Below are positions 1,411-21,045 of a DNA stretch of 22,358 bases, in pieces. The stretch is from a virus (Duplodnaviria; Heunggongvirae; Uroviricota; Caudoviricetes). The notes under the pieces were generated by a model. The model saw only the letters and a list, made by a program, of their open reading frames with translations. It searched no databases and was not told the DNA's origin. Every line of letters begins with the position of its first letter. Positions within the stretch are counted from its first letter, which is position 1. A program made the position numbers and the translations under genes. Where the stretch lies: IMG/VR virus record IMGVR_UViG_2541047718_000017. One strand, given 5' to 3'.

Positions 1411-1892
1411 GACAGCAGCCCTCCCACCGTTTTACTGATATCGCTTAAGGCAGACGTTGCCGTGTCCTGCAGATTATTCAGTTGCGCACTGAGATCACCG
1501 AACATATCGGACAGGGATTCATCCACTCGTTTGAGCGACAGGGTGAACTCAATCCGGCGCGGCATACCGTCGCGGAAAAACTCCGTTTTAGTCTGATTCA
1601 GTCCCTCAATCACATACATGCCGTAAATCGTGCCGCTGCCTTCAATCAGGGGCCATGCTTTCCCCTGTTCTGCCATCTGCTCCAGTGCCAGCAACGACAG
1701 CCTGCCGCCTGTTATTTCCGGCATAAGAACACCGGAAAGCGTCAGCATGTCGTTTTCCGGTCCCAGAAACTGCGTGGACGGACGTCGGTTTACCCGACTG
1801 TTTGCCGCATGTCGCCAGCTGCGTTGATACTGCAGTTCCTGATACGGAACGGTGCGCAGCATAAACACGTACAATCCCAGCACCATCATCAT
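1407..1892 (-). CDS. U: tail protein U
   Basis: 161-aa ORF directly downstream of T with overlapping stop/start; N-terminus resembles P2 gpU. Confidence 0.88.
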   Translation of the reverse strand: MMMVLGLYVFMLRTVPYQELQYQRSWRHAANSRVNRRPSTQFLGPENDMLTLSGVLMPEITGGRLSLLALEQMAEQGKAWPLIEGSGTIYGMYVIEGLNQTKTEFFRDGMPRRIEFTLSLKRVDESLSDMFGDLSAQLNNLQDTATSALSDISKTVGGLLS

Positions 1893-4800
1893 GCGTCGTA
1901 TCCCCCCTGATCGCTGTAGTTACTCCTGGCTTTTGCCTTCAGCCTGCGTTCACGTTCATCAAGCTGGCGTGCCACCTCCCGCGCAATATCCTGCGCACTT
2001 TGTCCTGGCTGCGTCTGAATGATGATCTGCGTCGGTGCCTCAATCCGTTGAACGAGCGGCACAGTGGCTGCGCGACTCACAATTGCTTCTCCACCTTTCG
2101 CGGGAAGTGCCAAAGGGTGCAACGGTGGAAGCTCTGCTGGCGCGGCAGCAACGCCCATCATTCCGGCAACAACGGCAGCCAGTGCAGCTGTATTTCTCCG
2201 GCTGGTCACATTTGCCGGGCCGTTAACAATTTCCGGCCCGTTTTCACCGACGATGCCAAACTGCCCTCGCGGGATATACCCGCCGCTGTCATACATCCCC
2301 GCAAAGCCATATCCCCATGATGGAAAACCACCCGATGGCATCATCACTTTACCGTCTGCATTCACCGTCGCAGGTTGCTGACGCGTCACGCTTTCCGGCA
2401 GTTTTGCCTTTGCGGCCTCTTTACTGACAATGCCGAGCTTCTCCAGCAACCAGGAAACGCCGGATTTCAGGGAGTCCAGCGGATGCATGACCATATTCAG
2501 CCCTTCCGCCAGTGCCTCCCCGAATCGCCGCCCCATTGCCGCTGCACTCTGCAGTTCGGCAGAGGTCGACTTAACGGGCGTCAGCAGATCAGTAAACCAG
2601 CCCCACAGCGCCTGTACTTTGTCGCCAATCCACTGAAACACAGGCTTAAGTGGTTCGAATGCAGCACTGATGGGACCTGCCGCCGCTTTGAATCCTTCCA
2701 CCACGCCACCGAGAAATGCGGTGATGGGTTGCCAGTATTTCCAGACAACCAGCGCCACGCCCGCCAGTGCAGTAACCACAAGACCTATCGGACTGAGCAG
2801 AGCACCTAACAGACCAGATATGGCATACAGGGCAACGCGCAGCATCGCCAGCGGACCAGATGCAAGCACACGAAGCACCGCGCCTGCGGCAGCCAGTCCA
2901 CCGCGCAGTACCGCCAGAGGATTCATAAACATCACAGCAACAGCACGTAAACCGGATAATCCAGACCGCAAAAGTGCAACCGGCGCACCTGCTACAGTTT
3001 TAAGGACATTTCCCGTCAGTGATGCCGTGCGGCGCAAAGACGACAACGGCGCAGTAAGTAAACCTGCGGCGTTGCCCGATGAAGCAAGCCCGCGTCGCAG
3101 CAGTGCCAGTGGTGCGCCAGCCAGCCAGGACAACGCGCTGCTGGTTCGAGTTACTGCTGCCGTAACGGAAGATAACGTTTTGATACCCAGCACAGAGAAT
3201 CCCAGACGGATCACTGCCAGCGGCCCCAGCACTGCAGCCAGCGCCACCGCTAAGGTGCCGAGGCCGACGGTAACCGCAGCCACAACAGCCGATGCTTTCA
3301 TCAGTGTGCCTGTCAGTTCCGGGTTAGCTTCCACCCAGCGACGCAACGCCCCCGTGACGCTTTTCACCGTGTACAGAATATCCATCAGCGGCTGGCGCAG
3401 CGTTTCGCCCAGGCTGCTGAAGGTGTTCTGCGCTCCGGTTTTGACCAGCAACCACTGCGCAGAAAGTGAATCCTTGTTAATGTCGGATTCTTTCTGCATG
3501 GAGCCGAGCGCATCATTGCCCGCTGTCAGTTTTAACTGACGCTGCAGTTCCGGCAGGTTGTTTGCCAGTTTCGCCGCGTCATCGCCAAACTCTTTACCAA
3601 ACAACATAGTCATGGCAGACAGGCGCTTGTCCTGCGGCAGCGCGTTTACCTTCTCCAGCACGCGCTGGATGGTTCCCATCGCATCCTTCGTCATCTGCTT
3701 TTCAATCACTTCAGGATTGAGTTTCAGCAGATTCATCCCTTCAAAGAAACTTTTGCTTTGCATGGTGGCAATGGACAATTCACACACCATCGCGTTTGCT
3801 GCACTGGCTGCAACCTCTGGCGCAGCGCCCAGTGTCAGGAAGGTGGAACCCAGCGCCGCCGCTTTACGATAATCCAGACGGTCAGCCACACCGCCCAGAC
3901 GTTGCATCACATCAATGATGTCTGCCCCTTTCGACATGGCGTTATCATCCAGATAGTTCAGCGCATCACCGAGCTGTTCAATATTGCGGGTGGGGATTTT
4001 GTAGAGCTGGGCGATTTTCCCCAGACTTTCTGACAGTTCATCCGCTGGCAGCTCAAAGGCTGTTGCCGCCTTTGCTGCCGTACTGGCGAAGGCCAGCAGG
4101 TCACGTTTCTGATCTTCCCAACTGTCGTCAGGGTTTGCGACGTTCATGCGCGCGCCACCTTCAACCAGTGCAGCGAAATCCACAGCACCGTTTTCCATCG
4201 GCAACTGTTCGCTGGCAGCCTTGATGGCATCCTGCATTTCATAAAAACGTGCAGTGCGGTTGCCATTATCGTCACGCAGACCATTGACCTGCTTTGCCAC
4301 ACCTTTCATGGCATCTTCCATGCTGGTATAGCTTTTTACTGCCGCCATCACTGGTGCGCCCATTGCCAGCCCTGCAGCCGTGGTGGTGGCTCCGGCACCT
4401 GCAATACGATCACGCACCTCCAGCGAACGGGCATAACTGGCACGCGCTGCATTCATCCTGCGCTGAGCTTCCCCCAGTCGCTTCAGCCGCGCCTCCTGTT
4501 TCGAAAGTTCCTGGTTATAACGTGATGTTTCACGGGCTAAACGGGCAGTTGCTCCCGCATCGTCTTTCGCAGAAATTCCCGCCCGGTACAGTTCAGCACG
4601 CACAAGCGCCGTCTGCTGCTGCAGCTTTTTCTGGCGTTCTTCCAGGCGCTGAACAGCCAGCCGTTGACGGCCCAGAGCAACAACCTGACGTTGCGAAGGC
4701 GGCCCCATCGCTCCCAGTTCCTGACTGAGCAAATTTGCACGCTGGCGGGCATAGTTCAGCCTGTCGCCTAATTTCTGATTTTCTGCCTGCAGCTTTCGGA

Positions 4801-4966
4801 AGCTGTCCAGACTGCTCCCGGCCTGATCAAGCTGCTTTATTGCATCGCGGGATTTTTTGACAGCAGCAGCCAGTTCTCTTGAACTGGCCTGCGCAGATCG
4901 AAATGGGCGGGTGAGCTTGTCAACCGCATTAAGAATGACCTGCAGACGCAGGTTGTTATCACTCAT
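1889..4966 (-). CDS. T: tail tape measure protein
   Basis: 1025-aa ORF; coiled-coil-rich N-terminal third, Gly/Ala/Leu-rich repeated hydrophobic segments in the middle, position between E/E' and U; typical of P2 gpT. Confidence 0.92.
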   Translation of the reverse strand: MSDNNLRLQVILNAVDKLTRPFRSAQASSRELAAAVKKSRDAIKQLDQAGSSLDSFRKLQAENQKLGDRLNYARQRANLLSQELGAMGPPSQRQVVALGRQRLAVQRLEERQKKLQQQTALVRAELYRAGISAKDDAGATARLARETSRYNQELSKQEARLKRLGEAQRRMNAARASYARSLEVRDRIAGAGATTTAAGLAMGAPVMAAVKSYTSMEDAMKGVAKQVNGLRDDNGNRTARFYEMQDAIKAASEQLPMENGAVDFAALVEGGARMNVANPDDSWEDQKRDLLAFASTAAKAATAFELPADELSESLGKIAQLYKIPTRNIEQLGDALNYLDDNAMSKGADIIDVMQRLGGVADRLDYRKAAALGSTFLTLGAAPEVAASAANAMVCELSIATMQSKSFFEGMNLLKLNPEVIEKQMTKDAMGTIQRVLEKVNALPQDKRLSAMTMLFGKEFGDDAAKLANNLPELQRQLKLTAGNDALGSMQKESDINKDSLSAQWLLVKTGAQNTFSSLGETLRQPLMDILYTVKSVTGALRRWVEANPELTGTLMKASAVVAAVTVGLGTLAVALAAVLGPLAVIRLGFSVLGIKTLSSVTAAVTRTSSALSWLAGAPLALLRRGLASSGNAAGLLTAPLSSLRRTASLTGNVLKTVAGAPVALLRSGLSGLRAVAVMFMNPLAVLRGGLAAAGAVLRVLASGPLAMLRVALYAISGLLGALLSPIGLVVTALAGVALVVWKYWQPITAFLGGVVEGFKAAAGPISAAFEPLKPVFQWIGDKVQALWGWFTDLLTPVKSTSAELQSAAAMGRRFGEALAEGLNMVMHPLDSLKSGVSWLLEKLGIVSKEAAKAKLPESVTRQQPATVNADGKVMMPSGGFPSWGYGFAGMYDSGGYIPRGQFGIVGENGPEIVNGPANVTSRRNTAALAAVVAGMMGVAAAPAELPPLHPLALPAKGGEAIVSRAATVPLVQRIEAPTQIIIQTQPGQSAQDIAREVARQLDERERRLKAKARSNYSDQGGYDA

Positions 4967-5395
4967 CGTTGGCCCCGCTTCTCTGAATCGCTTTATACCG
5001 CCATTCCAGCACTTCGGTCAGCGGCATAACGTCAGTAACGGATGGCGGCCAGTGAAAAATGGTGGCGATATCTGCCACCAGATCGTCAACCGTCAGGCTG
5101 TCGGTAAACCGGCAAGCACCGACTTCTTCAACAAAAAAGTGACAACCTCAACCGACATGGCAGTGAGATCTGCCGGGTCCATCTCTGCAATTTCCTGTGC
5201 AGTCAGTGCCGGACTGGAGATGCGGGGGAGCACGGTCATCATCGCGTTTACATCCATATCCATAATGGCCTGCAGGCGTGTACCGCGCAGCGCACCGGAC
5301 TGCGGTTTACGCAGCACAATTTCGGTGATTTCTGTTTTACCGCGCTTGATGGGGGTATCCAGTTGAATGGTCTTTTCAGTCTGCTTATCGCTCAT
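4959..5395 (-). CDS. E': tail assembly chaperone E+E' (programmed -1 frameshift product, about 145 aa)
   Basis: T_TTT_TTG heptamer on the minus strand at 5138..5132 in the E frame (ACT TTT TTG); the -1 frame stays open for 57 codons to a TGA at 4961..4959, overlapping the T start (4966). Manually translated. Confidence 0.72.
5093..5395 (-). CDS. E: tail assembly chaperone E (zero-frame product)
   Basis: 100-aa ORF between FII and T; the slippery heptamer lies near its 3' end. Confidence 0.88.
   Translation of the reverse strand: MSDKQTEKTIQLDTPIKRGKTEITEIVLRKPQSGALRGTRLQAIMDMDVNAMMTVLPRISSPALTAQEIAEMDPADLTAMSVEVVTFLLKKSVLAGLPTA
5132..5138 (-). other. -1 ribosomal frameshift slippery heptamer TTTTTTG (E to E')
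   Basis: Plus strand reads caaaaaa; X_XXY_YYZ register matches the E reading frame. Confidence 0.7.
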
Positions 5396-5420
5396 TTTGC
5401 TGTCCTGTCAATTGGGTTCT

Positions 5421-5438
5421 GGCGCGGTATCCCGCGCC
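5421..5438 (-). other. GC-rich stem-loop between FII and E (7-bp stem GGCGCGG/CCGCGCC, 4-nt loop)
   Basis: Perfect inverted repeat in the 54-bp FII-E intergenic region; no U-tract follows on the mRNA strand. Confidence 0.35.
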
Positions 5439-5449
5439 GTTCAGATATA

Positions 5450-5965
5450 TCAGAGGCCGAGGGCGTTGCGGTGCGCTTCCATCAGGTCCACACCGTCCAC
5501 AATTTCCACCATGTTGATAAGGTCCACTTCATAGAGCACCTCACCATTGATGGTCAGCTTCGCGTAGCTGTTGGTACTGGTCACTTTGGTGGTGTTGCTT
5601 TCGCCCGTCTTCCACTCGCCGGAATCCACTTCTTTGTGACGTCCACGCACGACAAGCTCCACGGCCTGCACTTCCCCGGTATCGTCACGCTGAATAGAGC
5701 CGGTAAAGCGCAGCTGGATGCCATCCACCGTGGCTTTACCCATCTGTTTAAACAGCAGCAATTCAGTACCACCAATGGAAAATTCTGTATCCAGCGCACT
5801 GTCATCAAGCCCCAGATCCACATCCACCGCACCCGGCATTCCGCCGCCGCGATACTTCTCATATTTGCGGGTAAATTTCGGCAGCGTCAGCGACTCAACG
5901 ATCCCCTGCCAGTTGTTCCCGTCGTTAAACAGGTTCAGGTGTTTTAATTTGCGTGGTAAAGCCAT
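5450..5965 (-). CDS. FII: tail tube protein
   Basis: 171-aa ORF; position and translation consistent with P2 gpFII. Confidence 0.9.
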   Translation of the reverse strand: MALPRKLKHLNLFNDGNNWQGIVESLTLPKFTRKYEKYRGGGMPGAVDVDLGLDDSALDTEFSIGGTELLLFKQMGKATVDGIQLRFTGSIQRDDTGEVQAVELVVRGRHKEVDSGEWKTGESNTTKVTSTNSYAKLTINGEVLYEVDLINMVEIVDGVDLMEAHRNALGL

Positions 5966-5974
5966 GTTGTCCCC

Positions 5975-6195
5975 TTACGCGCTGACCTGGCTGGCGAAAT
6001 TAACCAGGTACTGATCGGTGATGCGCTGACGCAGCATCAGGTTTTCAAGTGGCGGCACTGGCGTGTAGTCGTAGTCGATGGTGAGTTTTCCGGCTTTCAG
6101 CGTGTCTTTGTCGTTCACCGACTCATCCAGCCAGCAATCACCACCAATGAGATAGCCCTGACTGACCAGGCTGCGCATTTTGGCGCGGATACCTT
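5975..6195 (-). pseudogene. FI: tail sheath protein FI, detached C-terminal fragment (about 71 codons)
   Basis: ...[71 protein letters not shown] matches the P2 FI C-terminus; no FI-like sequence upstream of the junction at about 6194; the track ORF extends to 6337 only because no stop intervenes. Confidence 0.85.
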
Positions 6196-6207
6196 GGTTT
6201 GGGAGAA
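6182..6207 (+). other. hybrid invertase crossover site (junction A): FI-derived half GGCGCGGATACC, core TT, tail-fibre half GGTTTGGGAGAA
   Basis: 12-2-12 architecture; right half is the exact inverted repeat of 8045-8056; left half is sheath coding sequence. Confidence 0.7.
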
Positions 6208-6696
6208 GGCTCTGCATTACCGGTTGGGGTGCCTGTTCCGTGGCCTTCAGCCACTCCGCCAACAGGCTGGCTGAAATGCAACGGTGCCGCTTTTTCTGCT
6301 GAAGAATACCCGGAACTGGCAAAGGCTTATCCGACAAATAAATTGCCTGATTTACGTGGTGAGTTTATTCGTGGCTGGGATGACGGGCGTGGTATTGATG
6401 CTGTACGTGCCTTGCTAAGTCTTCAGAATGGAGGAGTGGAATCACACACCCACCAAGGGCAGCTCTTCAGAGTTAGTGATTATCGTACAAAAGAAATACC
6501 AGCATCAGAAGTTATGGGAAGAGGATATATTGCAAGCCTGACGCCGGGTGCTGATAGCCCACTTGATTTTGATGATTATTCTGTATCTTCTAATCCAAAT
6601 GGATATTTTGTCGGGAATCAGAGAACAACAGCATATGGGATAAATGAAACCCGTCCACGGAATATTGCATTTAACTATATCGTGAGGGCTGCCTGA
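6196..6696 (+). CDS. tail fibre variable C-terminal exon (Hv), currently not joined to the H constant region
   Basis: Begins GGT TTG GGA GAA (GLGE) immediately after the crossover core; translation ...[42 protein letters not shown]...NYIVRAA is a typical enterobacterial side-tail-fibre C-terminal receptor-binding domain; upstream in-frame stop at about 6163. Confidence 0.8.
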
Positions 6697-7298
6697 TGAA
6701 TAAAGCCGTATTAAATAACGAACTCATTGCCATAAAAGCGGGAGACATTACCATTTATAATTATGATGGTGAAACGCGGGAATATATTTCCACATCAACT
6801 GAATATCTTGCGGTTGGCGTCGGTATCCCGGCATGTTCTTGTTTAGATGCACCAGTTACACATAAAGCTGGTTATGCAATCTGCCGTTCTGCAGATTTTA
6901 ACTCATGGGAATATGTGCCAGACCATCGCGGTGAAATCATCTATAGCACCGAAACAGGAGAATCGAAAGAAATCACAGCTCCGGGTGATTACCCTGAAAA
7001 TACAACCACTATCGCCCCGTTAACGCCATATGATAAATGGGATGGTGAGAAATGGGTGACGGATACTGAGGCACAGCATAGTGCCGCAGTAGACGCGGCA
7101 GAAGCACAGCGCCAGTCACTGATTGATGCAGCAATGGCTTCCATTAGTCTGATTCAGCTGAAATTACAGGCCGGACGGAAGTTGACGCAGGCAGAAACAA
7201 CCCGACTTAACGCCGTGCTGGATTACATTGACGCGGTGGCGGCAACAGATACCAGCACCGCGCCGGATGTCATCTGGCCTGAACTGCCGGAGGCGTAG
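6696..7298 (+). CDS. tail fibre assembly chaperone (Tfa / Mu U-like) for Hv
   Basis: 200-aa ORF coupled to the Hv stop; C-terminal ...DYIDAVAATDTSTAPDVIWPELPEA motif typical of Tfa proteins. Confidence 0.85.
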   Translation: MNKAVLNNELIAIKAGDITIYNYDGETREYISTSTEYLAVGVGIPACSCLDAPVTHKAGYAICRSADFNSWEYVPDHRGEIIYSTETGESKEITAPGDYPENTTTIAPLTPYDKWDGEKWVTDTEAQHSAAVDAAEAQRQSLIDAAMASISLIQLKLQAGRKLTQAETTRLNAVLDYIDAVAATDTSTAPDVIWPELPEA

Positions 7299-7707
7299 GC
7301 CATTCAATATCTGGCGCACCGGTAGTATCGACTAGCTCCAGTGCGTCCAGATAATCCAGCCACGAATTATATTGCGCCAGTTCCTCGCTTTTCAGACGAC
7401 CAATAGCGGCTTTACCGGGCCATTGTTTACTGTTCATGTATTCGTTGGCCTGATTAAGCAATAATTGCCTTTCTGATTCTGCCTGTTGAATAAGTTCTTC
7501 ATGTGATGGTGGAGGTATTAGTGCCCATGTGGGTAATCCATTTTTTCCTGCAACACGAATTTTGTCATCTGGAGGCGTATTGATTGCAAATTCATTATAA
7601 ACATCATCACTGACAGCCAGAGCATCATCTGGCCATGAATTTGCATTAATGTAATCATCCTTAAGTGCAGGATTCACAAAAATGTTTAAAGATGGACTAT
7701 AAAACAT
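7270..7707 (-). CDS. alternative tail fibre assembly chaperone (Tfa', Mu U'-like)
   Basis: 145-aa ORF convergent with and overlapping tfa by 29 bp; C-terminal ...DYLDALELVDTTGAPDIEWPTPPA motif. Confidence 0.85.
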   Translation of the reverse strand: MFYSPSLNIFVNPALKDDYINANSWPDDALAVSDDVYNEFAINTPPDDKIRVAGKNGLPTWALIPPPSHEELIQQAESERQLLLNQANEYMNSKQWPGKAAIGRLKSEELAQYNSWLDYLDALELVDTTGAPDIEWPTPPAVQAR

Positions 7708-7708
7708 A

Positions 7709-8056
7709 TTACACCCCTATAGCGATATAACGACCTAATACAGCGTTTACAGCAGTCGCTATGCTTGAAAAACCGCGGAACTGATTTGATGTAATTGCAG
7801 AAGCCGACAGGATTCCTGCGCCTGAAGGTGTATGCCCCACATGACTAACTATCATTCCATAACATGCTGACGGAAAGGCAAAAGGAAAATCGTTAAGATA
7901 TCCGGCATCTTCACCACCAGACCCACCAAATCTCGCCTGCCCCCACTGAATAATCAGTGTTCTCCGGGAACCTGAAATAATTAACGGGATCGTTACATAC
8001 CCATTCAGGCCAATGACACCCGATGCAGTGCCAGCCAGAGATAATTCTCCCAAACC
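7709..8056 (-). CDS. alternative tail fibre variable C-terminal exon (Hv')
   Basis: Coding starts at the crossover core with the same GGT TTG GGA GAA (GLGE) as Hv; followed by tfa'. Codons upstream of 8056 in the track ORF (MMPVSCYLCIFLNV) lie in the outer half-site and are probably not coding. Confidence 0.78.
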   Translation of the reverse strand, partial: GLGELSLAGTASGVIGLNGYVTIPLIISGSRRTLIIQWGQARFGGSGGEDAGYLNDFPFAFPSACYGMIVSHVGHTPSGAGILSASAITSNQFRGFSSIATAVNAVLGRYIAIGV

Positions 8057-8070
8057 AACGTTTAAGAAAA
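8045..8070 (+). other. invertase crossover site (gix/hix/pix-like): TTCTCCCAAACC AA CGTTTAAGAAAA
   Basis: 12-2-12 near-dyad resembling the remembered hix/gix consensus (TTCTnnAAAACC-NN-GGTTT...); inner half is a perfect inverted repeat of 6196-6207; lies 56 bp upstream of the invertase start. Confidence 0.75.
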
Positions 8071-8125
8071 TGCAGAGGTAACAGCTAACTGGCATCATCT
8101 CCGGTTTTTATTCAGGGGGATGATC

Positions 8126-8692
8126 ATGCTTATTGGCTATGTACGCGTGTCAACAAATGACCAGAACACCGATTTGCAACGTAATGCACTGAACTGCGCG
8201 GGATGTGAGCAGATTTTTGAGGACAAAATCAGTGGCACTAAGTCCGACAGACCGGGGCTGAAAAAACTACTCAGGACACTATCGGCAGGAGACACGCTGG
8301 TTGTCTGGAAGCTGGACAGGTTGGGGCGCAGTATGCGGCATCTTGTTACGCTGATAGAAGAGTTGCGCCAGCGTGGTGTGAATTTCAGAAGCCTGACTGA
8401 CAGTATTGATACCAGTACCCCAATGGGCCGTTTCTTTTTTCATGTCATGGGTGCCCTGGCTGAAATGGAACGCGAACTGATAGTTGAACGTACCAGGGCA
8501 GGGCTGGCTGCAGCTCGTGCCAAAGGCAGAGTAGGTGGACGCCGTCCTAAGTTGACCACCGAACAGTGGGCACAGATTGGGCGTTTACTCGAGGCCGGAG
8601 AATCAAGACAGCGTATTGCACTGATTTTTGATGTAGGCGTTTCTACCATTTATAGAAAATTTCCGGCAAATAAGATCAATGAATCCCCCTGA
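8126..8692 (+). CDS. serine-recombinase DNA invertase (Gin/Pin/Cin/Hin family)
   Basis: MLIGYVRVSTNDQNTDLQRNAL...VVWKLDRLGRSMRHL...MGRFFFHVMGALAEMERELIVERT... matches Gin/Pin-type invertases from memory, including the catalytic Ser in YVRVST and a C-terminal HTH. Start taken at the internal ATG (track start 8120). Confidence 0.92.
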   Translation: MLIGYVRVSTNDQNTDLQRNALNCAGCEQIFEDKISGTKSDRPGLKKLLRTLSAGDTLVVWKLDRLGRSMRHLVTLIEELRQRGVNFRSLTDSIDTSTPMGRFFFHVMGALAEMERELIVERTRAGLAAARAKGRVGGRRPKLTTEQWAQIGRLLEAGESRQRIALIFDVGVSTIYRKFPANKINESP

Positions 8693-8740
8693 ATCAGCAT
8701 TATGTTGATTATCCCTGCAAGCAGACAAATACCGTTATTT

Positions 8741-8758
8741 TGTGTGAATAACGACACA
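8741..8758 (+). promoter_or_regulatory. Ogr-box (TGT-N12-ACA) of late promoter P_F upstream of FI
   Basis: TGTgtgaataacgacACA with 5-bp dyad arms, in the 143-bp gap between invertase and FI start, about 85 bp upstream of the FI ATG (8835). Confidence 0.6.
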
Positions 8759-8834
8759 ACTGCGCTTAGCTGTTTGTCAGGCACAATCACTTCAACATAG
8801 GGCGAAGCCTAATCCAATCAGGAGGTTCGCCACT

Positions 8835-9797
8835 ATGGCTCAGGATTACCACCACGGGGTGCGCGTTGTTGAAGTCAACGAAGGTACCCGATCTATTACC
8901 ACGGTGAGCACCGCCATCGTGGGTATGGTCTGCACGGGCGATGATGCCGATGCAAAAATGTTTCCTCTTAATAAACCCGTGCTGATCACTGATGTGCTGA
9001 CTGCCAGCGGTAAAGCGGGTGAGTCAGGTACTCTGGCCCGTTCGCTGGATGCCATCGCTGACCAGGCAAAACCCGTGACCATTGTTGTGCGTGTGCCGCA
9101 GGGTGAAACGGAAGACGAAACCACGACCAATATCATCGGCGCAGTGACTGCTGAAGGTAAAAAAACAGGTATGAAAGCCCTGTTATCTGCCCAGTCACAG
9201 CTCGGCGTTAAACCGCGCATTCTCGGCGTGCCAGGCCACGACACCAAGGCGGTAGCTACTGAGTTGCTGAGCGTGGCGCAAAGCCTGCGTGGATTTGCTT
9301 ACCTGTCAGCGTATGGCTGCAAGACAGTGCAGGAGGCGATCACTTACCGCGAAAACTTCAGCCAGCGCGAAGGGATGCTGATCTGGCCTGACTTTACTGG
9401 CTGGGACACGGTGCTGAATGCCGAAGCAACGGCATATGCCACCGCCCGTGCGCTTGGTCTGCGCGCCAAAATTGACGAGCAGACCGGATGGCACAAAAGC
9501 CTGTCCAACGTGGGCGTGAACGGTGTCACCGGAATTTCTGCAGATGTGTTCTGGGATCTGCAGGACCCGGCAACCGATGCAGGTCTGCTGAACCAGAACG
9601 ACGTCACCACGCTTGTGCGTAAAGACGGTTTCCGCTTCTGGGGTTCCCGCTGCCTGAGTGATGACCCGCTCTTTGCCTTCGAAAACTACACCCGCACGGC
9701 GCAGGTGCTGATGGACACGATGGCAGAAGCACACATGTGGGCGGTGGATAAACCGCTTAACCCGTCGCTGGCCCGCGACATTATCGAAGGTATGTGA
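8835..9797 (+). pseudogene. FI: tail sheath protein FI, N-terminal 319 codons, truncated at the inversion junction
   Basis: MAQDYHHGVRVVEVNEGTRSITTVSTAIVGMVCTGDDADAKMFPLNKPVLITDV... is near-collinear with the P2 FI N-terminus; reading frame ends ...RDIIEG-M-stop two codons after the crossover core. Confidence 0.88.
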
Positions 9798-13306: not shown

Positions 13307-13324
13307 TGTATCAGTGCTGATACA
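13307..13324 (+). promoter_or_regulatory. Ogr-box (TGT-N12-ACA) of late promoter P_V
   Basis: TTGTATCAGtgCTGATACAA, a 20-bp dyad with 9-bp arms, in the 68-bp gap between S stop and V start. Confidence 0.6.
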
Positions 13325-15810: not shown

Positions 15811-16014
15811 TCAGTCCCATAGCTGGACGGTCTGCACGGTGGTGGTTGTCGGAATGTCCGGCAGCTCCACCTGCAGCCCGTGAGGTAAAAAGGGGCCATA
15901 TTCGGCAAGCCCCGGATTTGCCTTCAGTACCTGCTCCGTGACACCCTGCGTGCGCCCGTAATGACGCCAGCAAAGCGCGTCCACCGTGTCATACTGATGC
16001 GCACGCACTTTCAT
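15811..16014 (-). CDS. X: tail protein X
   Basis: 67-aa ORF; MKVRAHQYDTVDALCWRHYGRTQGVTEQVLKANPGLAEYGPFLPHGLQVELPD matches P2 gpX. Confidence 0.9.
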   Translation of the reverse strand: MKVRAHQYDTVDALCWRHYGRTQGVTEQVLKANPGLAEYGPFLPHGLQVELPDIPTTTTVQTVQLWD

Positions 16015-16573: not shown

Positions 16574-17224
16574 TCAGCGGCTGTCATTGCGCAGTCTGCG
16601 CTCCAGCTGCTGTTTGTCTTTTTTCACGCCACAGCGGGGATCGAGCTGTAACGCATGGTTGAGATGATTAAGGGCGGAAGCCGGATTACTTTCACTCAGG
16701 ACAGCGCCAATCGCTTTATGCAGACGCGCCCGTGACTGGTCCGGCATGTCCAGACCGTCTGTCAGCTCCAGCGTCTGCAGCAACAGATCGACATCAAAGC
16801 CGGTAGTGGCAAGCATTGCGCTCTGTGCCGCGTCTGCCATTTCCTCTGCCAGCACGGTTTGCACATTGCGGTTACCCAGCGGCATCACCCAGCCATGACG
16901 CAGGGCATGACGCCCGATCTCCAGCGCCCCGGCATAATCTCCGGCATCAATGCGCCACAGCATCACGTACATCAGCACGTCATCCTGTTGAGCGCCTCCG
17001 GCAGCCAGAACACCCTCTGCCCAGGCGGCGTATTTCGGCAGCAGCTCCACCTTGATTTCCGCTTTTTTGACCGTGGACTGAACGCCCTTGAGACGGCGGC
17101 GATCTTCCGCCAGTTGCAGCAGCATCAGGTCATAGCCCGACGCGTGGCGAACGCTGCCGCCCTCACGGGCGGCCTGTTCAGCCTGAACGCGCAGGCGATG
17201 CTGCCGTGCGGGACTCAGGCTCAT
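16574..17224 (-). CDS. M: terminase small (endonuclease) subunit
   Basis: 216-aa ORF between N and L; resembles P2 gpM. Confidence 0.86.
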   Translation of the reverse strand: MSLSPARQHRLRVQAEQAAREGGSVRHASGYDLMLLQLAEDRRRLKGVQSTVKKAEIKVELLPKYAAWAEGVLAAGGAQQDDVLMYVMLWRIDAGDYAGALEIGRHALRHGWVMPLGNRNVQTVLAEEMADAAQSAMLATTGFDVDLLLQTLELTDGLDMPDQSRARLHKAIGAVLSESNPASALNHLNHALQLDPRCGVKKDKQQLERRLRNDSR

Positions 17225-17227
17225 GAA

Positions 17228-18286
17228 TTACGCTCCGGTTTCTGCTGCGGCGGCGCTAAAATCGCCAATCTGGATGTTTTCCACCAGTGCAGCGCAGCGG
17301 TAGTCCTCAACCACATAGGCTTCGTTAACGGATTCAAAGTTTTCAATCCGGTCACGTTTCGGGTTGTCGATAACTGAACGGCGGCGGGTGTCTTCCTGCC
17401 AGTAAATGGACAGGTTATCCAGACGGGTGATCAGCAGTGCATTCGGCGGGAAGAACGGCGCACGCACGGCCTGCAGGCCACCCATGCGTTTCTGACTGAT
17501 GATCATATCGGCAGCCAGTTTTTCACTGTTTTCCTGCTCTTTGTTGACCAGCGGGAAATACTTGTCAGACAGCAGTTCACGACCGCAAATCACCACCAGA
17601 TCGTCATCGTCCTGGTAGACCACGTCGATAAGCTCATTGACGGCATCCATCACCACAGCGTCCAGGTTGGCATATTCGCCACCTTTACCGACTTTCACCG
17701 CGCCCGGTGTGGTTTCACCGCCCGTGGTGGTGCTGCCCATAACGTGATCCGGTGCATCCTCACGGATTTTCTGCAGCCAGCCTTTGTTCACATCCTGCAG
17801 CAGCGGGTTTTCACTACGGTTGGAGGTTTTCGCACGCTTCACGCCGTTAAAGCCGATCATGATGCGGTCCAGTGCCTGACGTTTCACGATGGCGTCACGG
17901 ATACGCACCTGGAAATCCTGAAACTTCGCCCACAGGTCCAGCTTCGCGTAGGTCAGTACCGTGTCAAAGTTGGTCTGCTCGCATTTATATTCCACATCGA
18001 CCATCAGCGTCGGATCGACAGGTTCACGCTCTTTCGCGGTGGTATCAGTGGTTCCGGCAATGGTGCTGCCAACTCCCAACCCCAGCAGCTGACCGGACTG
18101 CTCAGTCACTGGCGTGACGTTAATCAGCGTCAGGAAAGCGGCGGACTGCTGGATCTGGTCTTCCAATGTCTGCTGCACGGACGGCTCTACGGTGAACTTG
18201 CTGGACAGTTCTTCAACTGCCACACCGTTCAGACGCGCCAGTTGCTGCAGATAAGCGTTAAAAGCAAAGCGGGTATTCTTCTTCAT
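17228..18286 (-). CDS. N: major capsid protein
   Basis: 352-aa ORF; MKKNTRFAFNAYLQQLARLNGV...FTVEPSVQQTL... collinear with P2 gpN. Confidence 0.93.
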   Translation of the reverse strand: MKKNTRFAFNAYLQQLARLNGVAVEELSSKFTVEPSVQQTLEDQIQQSAAFLTLINVTPVTEQSGQLLGLGVGSTIAGTTDTTAKEREPVDPTLMVDVEYKCEQTNFDTVLTYAKLDLWAKFQDFQVRIRDAIVKRQALDRIMIGFNGVKRAKTSNRSENPLLQDVNKGWLQKIREDAPDHVMGSTTTGGETTPGAVKVGKGGEYANLDAVVMDAVNELIDVVYQDDDDLVVICGRELLSDKYFPLVNKEQENSEKLAADMIISQKRMGGLQAVRAPFFPPNALLITRLDNLSIYWQEDTRRRSVIDNPKRDRIENFESVNEAYVVEDYRCAALVENIQIGDFSAAAAETGA

Positions 18287-18302: not shown

Positions 18303-19136
18303 TCAGCAATTGGTCAGAGTGTCAGCGGGGGCGTTACCGCCTGTTGCACGCTGGCGGTAGTCCTGGCGGCTGTCTTCATGGCTCAGCTTGTCCACCAGTT
18401 CGTTAAAGGCGGTCTGCTGTGCCTGCAGGGCAGTCTCCAGCTCAGACAGGCGTTCTTCCTGCTCAGACAGGGATTTTTCGGTGCGCGCACTCAGGTTCTG
18501 CTGCTCAGTGGCGACCAGTTCCACGGCCTTATGCACATCAGAGAACCGGGCGTCATCGGACTGCTCTTTTTTGGTGAACAGCGCCGTGACACGGGCAAAC
18601 AGGGACGGTTTGTCATCCTGGATTTCTTCCAGTTCGATCACCGTTTCCTCTGCAGCGGTAAAAAGATTGGCGGGATTCTGCTTGCGGTTTGCCAGCGGGT
18701 TATGGGCTGCACTGGCGCTGAATGTCAGCATTTCAGTGCCCAGACTGGCAGGGTCATCAGTGGCAGCCAGGCCGACCAGGTAGGCTTTGCCCGTATCAGC
18801 GAACTTCGGGCTAACTTCCATAGATGTGAATAATTTCTGGCCTTTTTTCACCAGTTCCACCAGGGACTCCGTTGGCTCAACGTCGGCATACAGCGCCATC
18901 TTGCCTGCCAGCGGACCTTCCTTGATTTCTTCAGCAAACAGCGCCGTCACCTTGCCGTAGCGGTTAAAGGTGCTGTCCGGCAGATAAGACTTGATGTGCT
19001 CAAGGTTAATCAGCGCGGTATACACCGCCGGGTTGTAGCTGGCTGCCATCTGTTCCAGCCATTCACGCTGGATTTCGCGTCCGTCGGTGGTGGCACCTTC
19101 CACCCCGATGCGAAAACGCTTTGCTTTCACTGTCAT
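18303..19136 (-). CDS. O: capsid scaffolding protein
   Basis: 277-aa ORF; MTVKAKRFRIGVEGATTDGREI... and an acidic/coiled-coil C-terminal half as in P2 gpO; GGAG Shine-Dalgarno upstream. Confidence 0.9.
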   Translation of the reverse strand: MTVKAKRFRIGVEGATTDGREIQREWLEQMAASYNPAVYTALINLEHIKSYLPDSTFNRYGKVTALFAEEIKEGPLAGKMALYADVEPTESLVELVKKGQKLFTSMEVSPKFADTGKAYLVGLAATDDPASLGTEMLTFSASAAHNPLANRKQNPANLFTAAEETVIELEEIQDDKPSLFARVTALFTKKEQSDDARFSDVHKAVELVATEQQNLSARTEKSLSEQEERLSELETALQAQQTAFNELVDKLSHEDSRQDYRQRATGGNAPADTLTNC

Positions 19137-19214
19137 GAGCCGTGCTCCGTTAGAAAAAACTTACTGGAGCCTTATGGTTGCGGTGATGGGGGCAGTGAAA
19201 CAATGCGCGGTATT

Positions 19215-19232
19215 TGTACCGACAACCACACA
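19215..19232 (+). promoter_or_regulatory. Ogr-box (TGT-N12-ACA) in the divergent O / P-Q promoter region
   Basis: tTTGTaccgacaaccacACAAa with 5-bp dyad arms, in the 142-bp gap between the O and P start codons; which promoter it serves is unresolved. Confidence 0.5.
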
Positions 19233-19278
19233 AACCGCAGGCGGGGAAAGCCTTCATTCAAGGTTGTAGGTTTGTGCC

Positions 19279-21045
19279 ATGAACACCACACTGACACCCG
19301 CAGATCTCGATCCCCGTCGGCAGGCCATGCTGCTGTACTTTCAGGGATACCGCGTAGCCCGCATTGCTGAAATGCTGGGCGAGAAAGTTGCAACCGTTCA
19401 CAGCTGGAAAAAACGCGACAAGTGGGGTGACTATGGGCCGCTGGATCAGATGCAGCTCACCACCGCCGCACGCTACTGCCAGCTCATCATGAAGGAGCAC
19501 AAAGAAGGGAAAGATTTCAAAGAGATTGACCTGCTGGCGCGCCAGTCGGAGCGCCACGCGCGGATCGGCAAGTTTAACAATGGCGGCAACGAAGCCGACT
19601 TAAACCCTAACGTCGCCAACCGCAATAAAGGCCCACGCCGTCAGCCGGAAAAGAATGTTTTCACCGATGAGCAGATTGAGAAGCTGGAAGAAATCTTCCA
19701 TTCCTCCATGTTCAACTACCAGCGCCACTGGTGGGAAGCCGGAAAAACCAACCGCATCCGCAACCTGCTGAAGTCACGCCAGATCGGCGCGACCTTTTAC
19801 TTTGCCCGTGAAGCCCTGATTGACGCCCTGCTTACCGGACGTAACCAGATTTTCCTTTCCGCCAGCAAGGCACAGGCCCACGTCTTTAAGCAGTACATCA
19901 TCGACTTCGCCAAAGAAGTGGGGGTGGAGTTGAAAGGCGATCCGATGGTGCTTCCTAACGGGGCCACGCTTTACTTCCTCGGCACCAATGCCCGCACGGC
20001 CCAGAGTTATCACGGCAACCTGTATCTGGATGAATATTTCTGGATACCGAAATTCCAGGAGCTGCGCAAAGTGGCTTCCGGTATGGCTATTCACAAAAAA
20101 TGGCGACAAACCTATTTTTCCACGCCATCCAGCCTGACACACAGTGCTTATCCGTTCTGGTCCGGTGCGCTGTTCAACCGTGGGCGCAACAAGGCCGACA
20201 AGGTGGACATCGACCTGTCCCACAGCAATCTGGCCCCCGGCCTGCTGTGCGCAGACGGGCAATACCGCCAGATAGTCACCGTGGAAGATGCGGTGCGCGG
20301 CGGCTGTAACCTGTTCGACCTTGACCAGTTGCGCATGGAGTACAGCCCGGACGAATACCAGAACCTGCTGATGTGCGAGTTTGTGGACGATCTCGCGTCC
20401 GTATTTCCGCTCAGCGAGCTGCAGGCGTGCATGGTGGACAGCTGGGAAGTCTGGACCGACTTTCATGCACTGGCTCTGCGCCCGTTTGGCTGGCGCGAAG
20501 TGTGGATCGGTTATGACCCGGCAAAAGGTACGCAAAACGGCGACAGCGCCGGATGCGTGGTGGTGGCACCGCCAGCCGTGCCTGGTGGTAAGTTCCGCAT
20601 TCTTGAGCGTCACCAGTGGCGCGGGATGGACTTCCGCGCCCAGGCTGACGCCATCAAAAAACTGACCGAACAGTACAACGTGACCTATATCGGTATCGAC
20701 TCAACCGGCGTTGGTCACGGGGTTTATGAGAACGTGAAAGCGTTCTTTCCTGCCGTCCGGGAGTTTGTCTACAACCCCAATGTTAAAAACGCCCTGGTAC
20801 TCAAGGCCTACGACATTATCAGCCACCGCCGTCTGGAGTTTGACGCCGGGCACACCGACATTGCGCAGTCATTTATGGCAATCCGTCGCGCTACCACTGC
20901 CAGTGGCAACCGCCCGACCTATGAAGCCAGCCGCAGCGAAGAAGCCAGCCATGCCGATCTGGCCTGGGCAACAATGCACGCACTGTTTAACGAACCGCTG
21001 CAGGGCGAGTCCGCCAATACCAGCAATATTGTGGAGATTTTTTGA
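19279..21045 (+). CDS. P: terminase large (ATPase) subunit
   Basis: 588-aa ORF divergent from O and followed by Q, as in P2. Confidence 0.92.
   Translation: MNTTLTPADLDPRRQAMLLYFQGYRVARIAEMLGEKVATVHSWKKRDKWGDYGPLDQMQLTTAARYCQLIMKEHKEGKDFKEIDLLARQSERHARIGKFNNGGNEADLNPNVANRNKGPRRQPEKNVFTDEQIEKLEEIFHSSMFNYQRHWWEAGKTNRIRNLLKSRQIGATFYFAREALIDALLTGRNQIFLSASKAQAHVFKQYIIDFAKEVGVELKGDPMVLPNGATLYFLGTNARTAQSYHGNLYLDEYFWIPKFQELRKVASGMAIHKKWRQTYFSTPSSLTHSAYPFWSGALFNRGRNKADKVDIDLSHSNLAPGLLCADGQYRQIVTVEDAVRGGCNLFDLDQLRMEYSPDEYQNLLMCEFVDDLASVFPLSELQACMVDSWEVWTDFHALALRPFGWREVWIGYDPAKGTQNGDSAGCVVVAPPAVPGGKFRILERHQWRGMDFRAQADAIKKLTEQYNVTYIGIDSTGVGHGVYENVKAFFPAVREFVYNPNVKNALVLKAYDIISHRRLEFDAGHTDIAQSFMAIRRATTASGNRPTYEASRSEEASHADLAWATMHALFNEPLQGESANTSNIVEIF

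Follow-up and report, generated by a model that had tools for sequence, protein, structure and literature searches.

A perfect, GC-rich RNA hairpin (5421-5438, minus strand) lies between the tail tube gene FII and the chaperone gene E of the P2-like prophage contained in the window, that is, the whole 22,358-nt stretch of DNA analysed here. The hairpin is real, conserved and functional-looking, and it belongs, as an ordinary example, to a known class: the intercistronic hairpins between tube and chaperone genes, represented by tI in phage 186. It appears to be the version of the post-tube stem-loop of P2-like phages that belongs to the Fels-2/Elveevirus-type lineage. As for its role, we see about an even chance that it forms an intercistronic boundary that keeps FI-FII mRNA more abundant than E-T-U-D mRNA, in this phage mainly as a barrier to 3'→5' decay.

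FII and E are both encoded on the minus strand, along which the late tail genes of the prophage run. The 171-aa product of FII (5450-5965, minus; CDS without stop codon 5453-5965) matched Pfam Phage_tube (E = 9e-60) and was 100% identical to the tube protein of phage Cartapus, and the 100-aa product of E (5093-5395, minus) matched Phage_TAC_7, which agrees with the assignment of the two genes to tail tube and chaperone in a preliminary description of this DNA. A slippery TTTTTTG at 5138-5132 serves the -1 shift from E into E' (Pfam Phage_P2_GpE). The tape measure gene T (1889-4966, minus; Cartapus annotation) is the first of the low-abundance downstream genes T, U and D. The tail gene order is the same as in Fels-2, Cartapus, 186 and P2. 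The phage was placed in the Fels-2/Elveevirus-type branch of the Peduoviridae, and its tube-E region shared 98-99.7% identity with the Escherichia phages Cartapus and 500465-1 and 86% with Fels-2.

A 54-nt spacer (5396-5449, minus) separates the stop codon of FII (5452-5450, minus) from the start codon of E (5395-5393, minus). It is made up of 11 nt from stop codon to stem, 18 nt of hairpin and 25 nt from stem to AUG. Together with the two codons, the mRNA reads UGA-UAUAUCUGAAC-GGCGCGG-GAUA-CCGCGCC-AGAACCCAAUUGAC-AGGA-CAGCAAA-AUG. The + strand at 5421-5438 is GGCGCGG-TATC-CCGCGCC; in the mRNA sense, read from 5438 to 5421, the arms GGCGCGG (5438-5432) and CCGCGCC (5427-5421) form a perfect stem of seven G-C pairs around the 4-nt loop GAUA (5431-5428), and the stem is followed by AGAACCCAAUUGACAGGACAGCAAA and then the AUG of E. 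The hairpin was calculated at -15.1 kcal/mol, folding of the 54-nt spacer gave a z score of -3.25 (1 of 200 shuffles folded as well), and the hairpin was kept in both the MFE and the centroid structures in 54-, 91- and 201-nt contexts. The preliminary description had reported a GC-rich hairpin between the FII stop and the E start and had proposed a folding-energy calculation; the hairpin is present, and the energies support it. Perfect 7-bp all-G/C stems occurred twice in the 22-kb window, compared with 0.16 expected from dinucleotide shuffles, and from the shuffle counts we calculated that the chance of such a stem inside the 54-nt spacer is of the order of 4e-4.

The second of these two stems belongs to a hairpin at 17156-17173 (minus; GCCGCCC-GUGA-GGGCGGC), which is found about 50 nt past the stop codon of ORF 17228-18286, within the start of ORF 16574-17224, and is also without a U-tract. 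By P2 gene order, these two ORFs would be the major-capsid gene N and gene M, respectively. By analogy, this hairpin may mark a similar boundary after another abundant structural gene.

Searches for known elements around the FII-E spacer gave negative results. No family was matched by Rfam covariance models (E <= 10) in window positions 4800-6100, and a sigma-70-like promoter scan of 4500-6500 found no site. A TTGACA in the spacer is unconserved, being TTTACA or TTAACA among relatives. No Ogr-type TGT-N12-ACA motif was present in the spacer, and the nearest match (5914-5931) is inside FII. Additionally, three candidate functions were rejected: an RNase III site, because a 7-bp stem is too short; a REP-like repeat, because the palindrome occurs once in the window; and a frameshift stimulator, because the slippery site is about 280 nt downstream.

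Conservation was analysed in a close and a wide set of relatives. The close set consisted of 80 near-identical IMG/VR contigs (99-100% identical relatives) and was of little use for covariation. In these contigs, 0 of 14 stem positions varied compared with 9 of 36 non-stem positions (hypergeometric p ~ 0.04, our own calculation), and the loop was GAUA, AAUG, GAUU or AAUA. The wide set, from a profile scan of one genome per GTDB species, comprised 80 loci with tube identities from 100% to 61%; hairpins were counted in the 48 distinct FII-E spacers at tube identities of at least 79%. A hairpin of -12 kcal/mol or lower, starting 5-12 nt after the tube stop codon, was found in 42 of these 48 spacers, whereas the same criterion picked out only 2.6% of 2,485 control windows of equal length taken from these loci, a 16-fold enrichment. 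Conservation across P2-like phages, which the preliminary description had proposed to check, was thus evident.

The stem sequence itself differs widely among relatives. At least eight distinct stems were found at the FII-E position, namely GGCGCGG, CUGGCGCG(G), CGGCAGG(C/G), CGGUGCGG, GGCACC, CCGGUCAGC (P2), ACCGGUCAGC (186) and GCCCCAC, and GGCGCGG carries 16 different loop sequences. Further G/C-rich stem types follow the tube gene in Aeromonas, Pseudomonas (phiCTX-like), Burkholderia, Ralstonia, Mannheimia, Xanthomonas, Enterobacter and another Escherichia phage. When the spacers were aligned with MAFFT on sequence alone, the hairpin arms were in register, and RNAalifold predicted the helix. 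Compensatory pairs were GC<->AU at columns 18-30, CG<->GC at columns 19-29 and CG<->UA at columns 17-31. Paired cells made up 80.8%, compared with 25-45% when the partner was slid by 1-3 columns, and the observed covariation score was reached by 0 of 500 shuffles; because the compensatory changes trace to a few clade-level events, these counts overstate the independent events, which number a handful, not dozens. Three Yersinia species (Y. proxima, Y. aleksiciae and Y. thracica; loci L147, L148 and L149) have a FII-E spacer of about 160 nt instead of the usual ~54 nt, with a G/C-rich structured insert (..GUCGUAGCGGCUUAGGCCGCCGGAGCGCCCGUAGG..) that is possibly a repetitive intergenic element; an Rfam scan of these three relatives with long spacers found no match.

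A perfect inverted repeat could also act as DNA, as a protein site or a cruciform, or could terminate antisense (+ strand) transcripts, and the + strand stem even extends to 8 pairs. However, what is conserved is the ability of the arms to pair and not their sequence, which speaks against a sequence-specific protein site, and 186 and some relatives have G·U pairs in the sense-strand RNA; for these reasons, such a reading is hardly credible. Moreover, the + strand tail GUUCAGAUAU contains no U-tract, nothing is known to be transcribed into it, and the promoter scan found no promoter-like site nearby.

The position of the stem relative to the two genes bears on a possible translational role for E, whether by coupling to FII termination, as a standby site for ribosomes or by occluding the ribosome-binding site. 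Coupling was suggested in the preliminary description, and the fairly constant distance from stem to E start among relatives (23-34 nt) would suit an element of this kind. However, the Shine-Dalgarno sequence AGGA (5406-5403, minus), which is located 7 nt before the AUG and belongs to an ACAGGA conserved in the alignment of relatives, was unpaired in every predicted fold and thus formed no pairs with the hairpin. The stem ends 14 nt upstream of AGGA and 25 nt upstream of the AUG, the stop-to-start gap amounts to 54 nt, and it is the spacing from the FII stop codon (5-12 nt) that is conserved, as is typical of 3'-end elements. A translational element is therefore very unlikely, and the suggestion of coupling is not supported.

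Counterparts of the hairpin have been annotated in two phages. The GenBank record of phage 186 (U32222.1) contains a hairpin at 15906-15932 annotated as 'terminator tI; partial terminator of pJ transcript', and for Xanthomonas phage FoX2 a rho-independent terminator is annotated at the tube/chaperone position. Because both annotations fall at the same position, the FII-E hairpin represents a known kind of P2-like feature; most other records, those of Fels-2 and Cartapus included, do not annotate it. Full-text searches for 186 tI, or for a terminator between FII and E in P2, returned no usable published description, so tI is cited here from the GenBank feature.

The hairpin resembles those of 186 and P2 in several respects. 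It occupies the same place in the same operon, between the tube (I/FII) and E-type chaperone (H/E) genes, its G/C-rich stem is comparable to theirs (7-12 bp) and combined with a poor U-tract, and, like tI, it is a stable, covarying hairpin 5-12 nt past the tube stop codon, starting after 11 nt here and after 5-7 nt in 186 and P2. A similar ACCC..AUU..CAG(G)A run precedes the Shine-Dalgarno sequence. On the other hand, the stem is unrelated, GGCGCGG versus (A)CCGGUCAGC, the loop has 4 nt instead of 3 nt, the tail lacks any U where 186 and P2 have UAUUA or UUAA, and the approximate d-score is about -35 versus about -12. No homology of stem sequence to 186 tI or the P2 hairpin was detected, and only the downstream ACCC..AUU..CAGGA run is similar. 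From hairpin to E start, this run is (A/U)ACCC(C)-(A/G)AUU-(N)A-CAG(G/A)A in this phage, P2 and 186 despite their wholly different stems (window 5403-5420; L084 2056-2083; L085, P2, 2305-2335).

The region directly 3' of the stem is where the hairpin departs from an intrinsic terminator. The stem corresponds to that of a terminator (G/C-rich, 5-20 bp, short loop). However, the tail AGAACCCAAUU (5410-5420, minus) contains 0 U in the first 8 nt past the mRNA-sense stem; AGAACCCAAU thus lacks a U-tract, which would have at least about five U among 8 nt and start 0-2 nt past the stem, and a consensus terminator scan did not call the 5421-5438 hairpin, in agreement with the lack of a U-tract noted in the preliminary description. 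Efficient intrinsic termination by E. coli RNA polymerase requires a U-tract. Because the U-tract is missing, we infer that the hairpin acts mainly after transcription, and termination at the hairpin itself would be weak at most.

Among relatives, the 3' tails form a continuum. Canonical U-runs are present in FoX2 (UUUUUACU), phiCTX-like phages (UUUCUUUC), Mannheimia and Shewanella; U/C-rich tails follow the identical GGCGCGG stem in loci L133/L134 (UUCUCUCUUC) and in a Pantoea group (CUUAUCUCUCUUUUU); poor tails are found in 186 (UAUUACCC), P2 (UUAACCCC) and Fels-2 (AGUAUUUC); and U-less tails occur in this window (AGAACCCA), Klebsiella (CCAACCCA), Aeromonas, Burkholderia FLC10 and others. 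Thus, FoX2 (where the element is annotated), the phiCTX-like BR319a, Mannheimia phiMhaA1 and Shewanella prophages share a G/C-rich hairpin at the tube/chaperone position with this phage, but theirs are followed directly by five or more U, whereas none follows here. According to a d'Aubenton-Carafa-type d-score, whose formula is approximate, this hairpin scored about -35, 186 tI and P2 about -12, and the U-rich versions +11 to +29.

These tails are central to the question of whether the hairpin is a leaky intrinsic terminator like 186 tI, at which a fraction of the polymerases would stop and E-T-U-D transcription would be lowered directly. The 186 element, whose tail UAUUACCCCC is likewise poor, is nonetheless recorded as a partial terminator, U-rich tails follow the same stem in some relatives (L133/L134, with an approximate d-score of about +11, and the Pantoea group), canonical terminators stand at the same position in FoX2, where annotated, and in phiCTX-like and Mannheimia phages, and a 2.4-fold drop in mRNA was found at this junction in the related prophage BTP5, as described below. 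Against this stand the absence of U in the 8 nt past the stem, the silence of the consensus scanner, the U-tract dependence of E. coli RNA polymerase, and a d-score far below those of 186 and P2 and of the canonical examples (above 0), as far as the approximate formula goes. We consider leaky termination a possible but rather unlikely explanation here. The preliminary description, which held that the element was more likely not a terminator, was borne out as to the missing U-tract but was too dismissive, given the tI annotation in 186 and the U-rich tails of same-stem relatives.

The stem is kept without a U-tract in this window, in loci L083, L116 and L126, and in Aeromonas LPM4, Burkholderia FLC10, Enterobacter phiT5282H and Escherichia 500465-2. 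Because it is retained in many lineages that lack a U-tract, the stem itself, and not a complete terminator, appears to be the target of common selection. Conservation of a U-less stem would fit an exonuclease barrier at least as well as termination.

The same comparison can be read differently, with the hairpin as a non-functional relic, either a former terminator minus its U-tract or a neutral G/C palindrome that has travelled with the tail module. The U-less tail in this clade is compatible with such a relic, and the stem has been damaged or lost, with no obvious consequence, in L109 (Tatumella), L119 (Raoultella) and L087; hairpins were also absent from a Halomonas phage, from Tatumella and from several Xenorhabdus/Photorhabdus prophages with 31-46-nt spacers. 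Nevertheless, the stem is invariant while loop and flanks vary, its pairing is maintained through compensatory changes and by entirely different stem sequences, and hairpins are 16-fold enriched over control windows, all of which makes a relic improbable.

The reading we favour, an intercistronic boundary acting mainly as a decay barrier, has models in bacterial operons. The malE-malF REP and the hairpins of the Rhodobacter puf operon are intercistronic mRNA-stabilising hairpins; as with the FII-E hairpin, a stable stem-loop without a U-tract lies downstream of the better-expressed cistrons, and an excess of upstream mRNA is expected. In structure and position, the hairpin corresponds to a 3'-end stabiliser of this type, a stable stem-loop 3' of better-expressed cistrons that does not depend on a U-tract. 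Unlike the malE-malF REP, it is single-copy in the window and belongs to no repeated family, and the puf structures have much longer stems. A further point against the stabiliser reading is that the depositors of the 186 sequence named the equivalent element a terminator, not a stabiliser.

Sheath FI and tube FII are proteins required in hundreds of copies. The hairpin would mark a boundary in the late tail mRNA FI-FII-E-E'-T-U-D, with the sheath and tube segment kept at a higher level than the segment for chaperone, tape measure and baseplate hub. Phages are documented to balance the dosage of their genes by leaky terminators and boundary elements (PMC9163698). Transcripts would be cleaved or terminated further downstream and then trimmed 3'→5' by exonucleases, trimming would be halted at the stable 7-bp G/C stem, and a protected, still translatable FI-FII mRNA would result. 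Such a barrier would require a source of downstream 3' ends. We infer this mechanism, and its effect in this particular phage, from the structure, the position and the comparison with relatives.

Expression data from BTP5, a P2/186-type prophage of S. Typhimurium D23580 whose tail transcript was noted by Owen et al. 2020 (PMC7067206), show that a related prophage does have a fall in mRNA level between the tube and chaperone genes. We computed ratios between neighbouring genes from the TPM table for 17 conditions (PMC7067206, supplementary file 1). The median FI→FII ratio was 1.01, whereas the FII→E ratio was 0.42 (a 2.4-fold drop), with E lower in 17 of 17 conditions (Wilcoxon p = 1.5e-5). The E'→T ratio was 0.37, and T, U and D were flat. 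The BTP5 tail operon therefore has two steps, FII→E and E'→T, and is flat within FI-FII and within T-U-D. The authors of that study reported a 'three-gene tail operon' of unclear relevance (PMC7067206); in their table, it consists of the fibre-assembly gene, FI and FII, and thus ends at the tube gene.

The gene and spacer lengths of BTP5 match those of Salmonella phages FSL SP-004 and SW9, both of which have a 186-type tI hairpin, so that BTP5 would be expected to have one as well. The 2.4-fold drop comes from uninduced lysogens with low TPM and presumably from an element whose stem differs from GGCGCGG and whose tail is UAUUA, and the ratios cannot discriminate between termination and differential decay. 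Within this scope, the coverage step that the preliminary description had proposed to look for was found in a 186-type prophage, and its idea that the hairpin tunes tube versus chaperone expression fits both this drop and the conserved, covarying position. Lack of conservation together with unchanged coverage, which it had named as evidence against a role, was not observed.

In the genome studied here, the region upstream of FII has been rearranged. Window positions ~6195-9787 are inverted relative to phage Cartapus, with breakpoints at 6189-6195 and 9787-9793 and a 7-bp overlap in the comparison with Cartapus. The inversion splits both the tail-fibre gene H and the sheath gene FI: H (11500→9787) adjoins the inverted 5' 955 nt of FI, and the 3' end of FI (6195→5975) adjoins a fibre cassette. 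Gin/Cin-type crossover half-sites are located at 6194-6207 and 8045-8061, and an invertase of the Resolvase family (Pfam) is encoded at 8120-8692. Judging from these sites, the inversion looks like an aberrant, invertase-mediated event in which the fibre crossover site recombined with a quasi-site, ATCGAAGGTATCC, within the sheath gene. Among 5,426 complete E. coli genomes, only two, AR_0013 and OZ546943.1, have the same junction.

TGT-N12-ACA sites of the Ogr/B late-activator type were located at 8741-8758, upstream of the inverted sheath 5' fragment, at 13307-13324, and at 19215-19232 and 19273-19290, in the gap 19137-19278 between the divergent ORFs 18303-19136 (minus) and 19279-21045 (plus). 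These four positions are where the four P2-type late promoters would be expected, although the total of six such motifs in the window is no higher than chance. The inversion separates FII-E-T-U-D from its PF-type late promoter, the site at 8741-8758 now having the opposite orientation. Because the operon is cut off from this promoter, the hairpin is probably not in use in the arrangement of this genome.

A second, terminator-like hairpin is present downstream, in the E' extension (5055-5080, minus): UGGUGGC-AGAUAUC-GCCACCA, followed by UUUUU (UUUUUCAC). It starts 12 nt past the E stop codon, within the E' frame, was called terminator-like by the scanner, and scored about +5 with the approximate d-score formula. 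It was conserved in almost all relatives, down to 62% tube identity. The hairpin encodes the GpE motif LVADIATIFHW, and the synonymous third positions of its stem codons had entropies of 0.29 (Leu), 0.43 (Val), 0.84 (Ala) and 0.79 bits (Thr), whereas comparison codons elsewhere in E' (Ala, Val, Thr and Pro) were more variable, at 1.66-1.85 bits. Synonymous changes that preserve the helix were found as GUG/GCC→GUA/GCU in three sequences and as CUG/ACC→UUA/ACU in one sequence. The E' hairpin may be the actual attenuator ahead of T.

Since most ribosomes stop upstream of the E' hairpin and only frameshifted ones traverse it, the hairpin could link T-U-D transcription to frameshifting: it could form as ribosomes halt at the E stop codon and be melted by ribosomes that frameshift into E'. 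In a combined scheme, the tube hairpin would provide a U-tract-independent processed or protected 3' end and the E' hairpin would attenuate T-U-D through frameshift-dependent antitermination; we regard this scheme as a long shot. If true, it would tie the transcription of T, the tape-measure gene, to the synthesis of the E+E' chaperone. Literature searches found no published description of the E' hairpin as a frameshift-linked attenuator. In P2 (L085), the slippery UUUUUUG is immediately preceded by a hairpin, GCUGGCCGGUAAGGUGGUCGGU, some 50 nt ahead of the E stop codon, and this hairpin-plus-U-run arrangement resembles a terminator or a transcriptional-slippage site.

The FII-E hairpin does not change the understanding of mechanisms. 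It is useful for annotation, as almost no record marks the element, and for the engineering of P2/P4-based delivery particles or tailocins, in which the dosage of tail genes is important. According to the survey of relatives, a hairpin at the post-tube position is near-universal among P2-like phages, whether or not a U-tract follows it. Contractile tails need sheath and tube subunits in numbers about two orders of magnitude higher than chaperone, tape-measure and hub proteins, all from one late operon. An intercistronic hairpin after the tube gene would be a simple way of setting the ratio of sheath and tube to chaperone, tape measure and hub.
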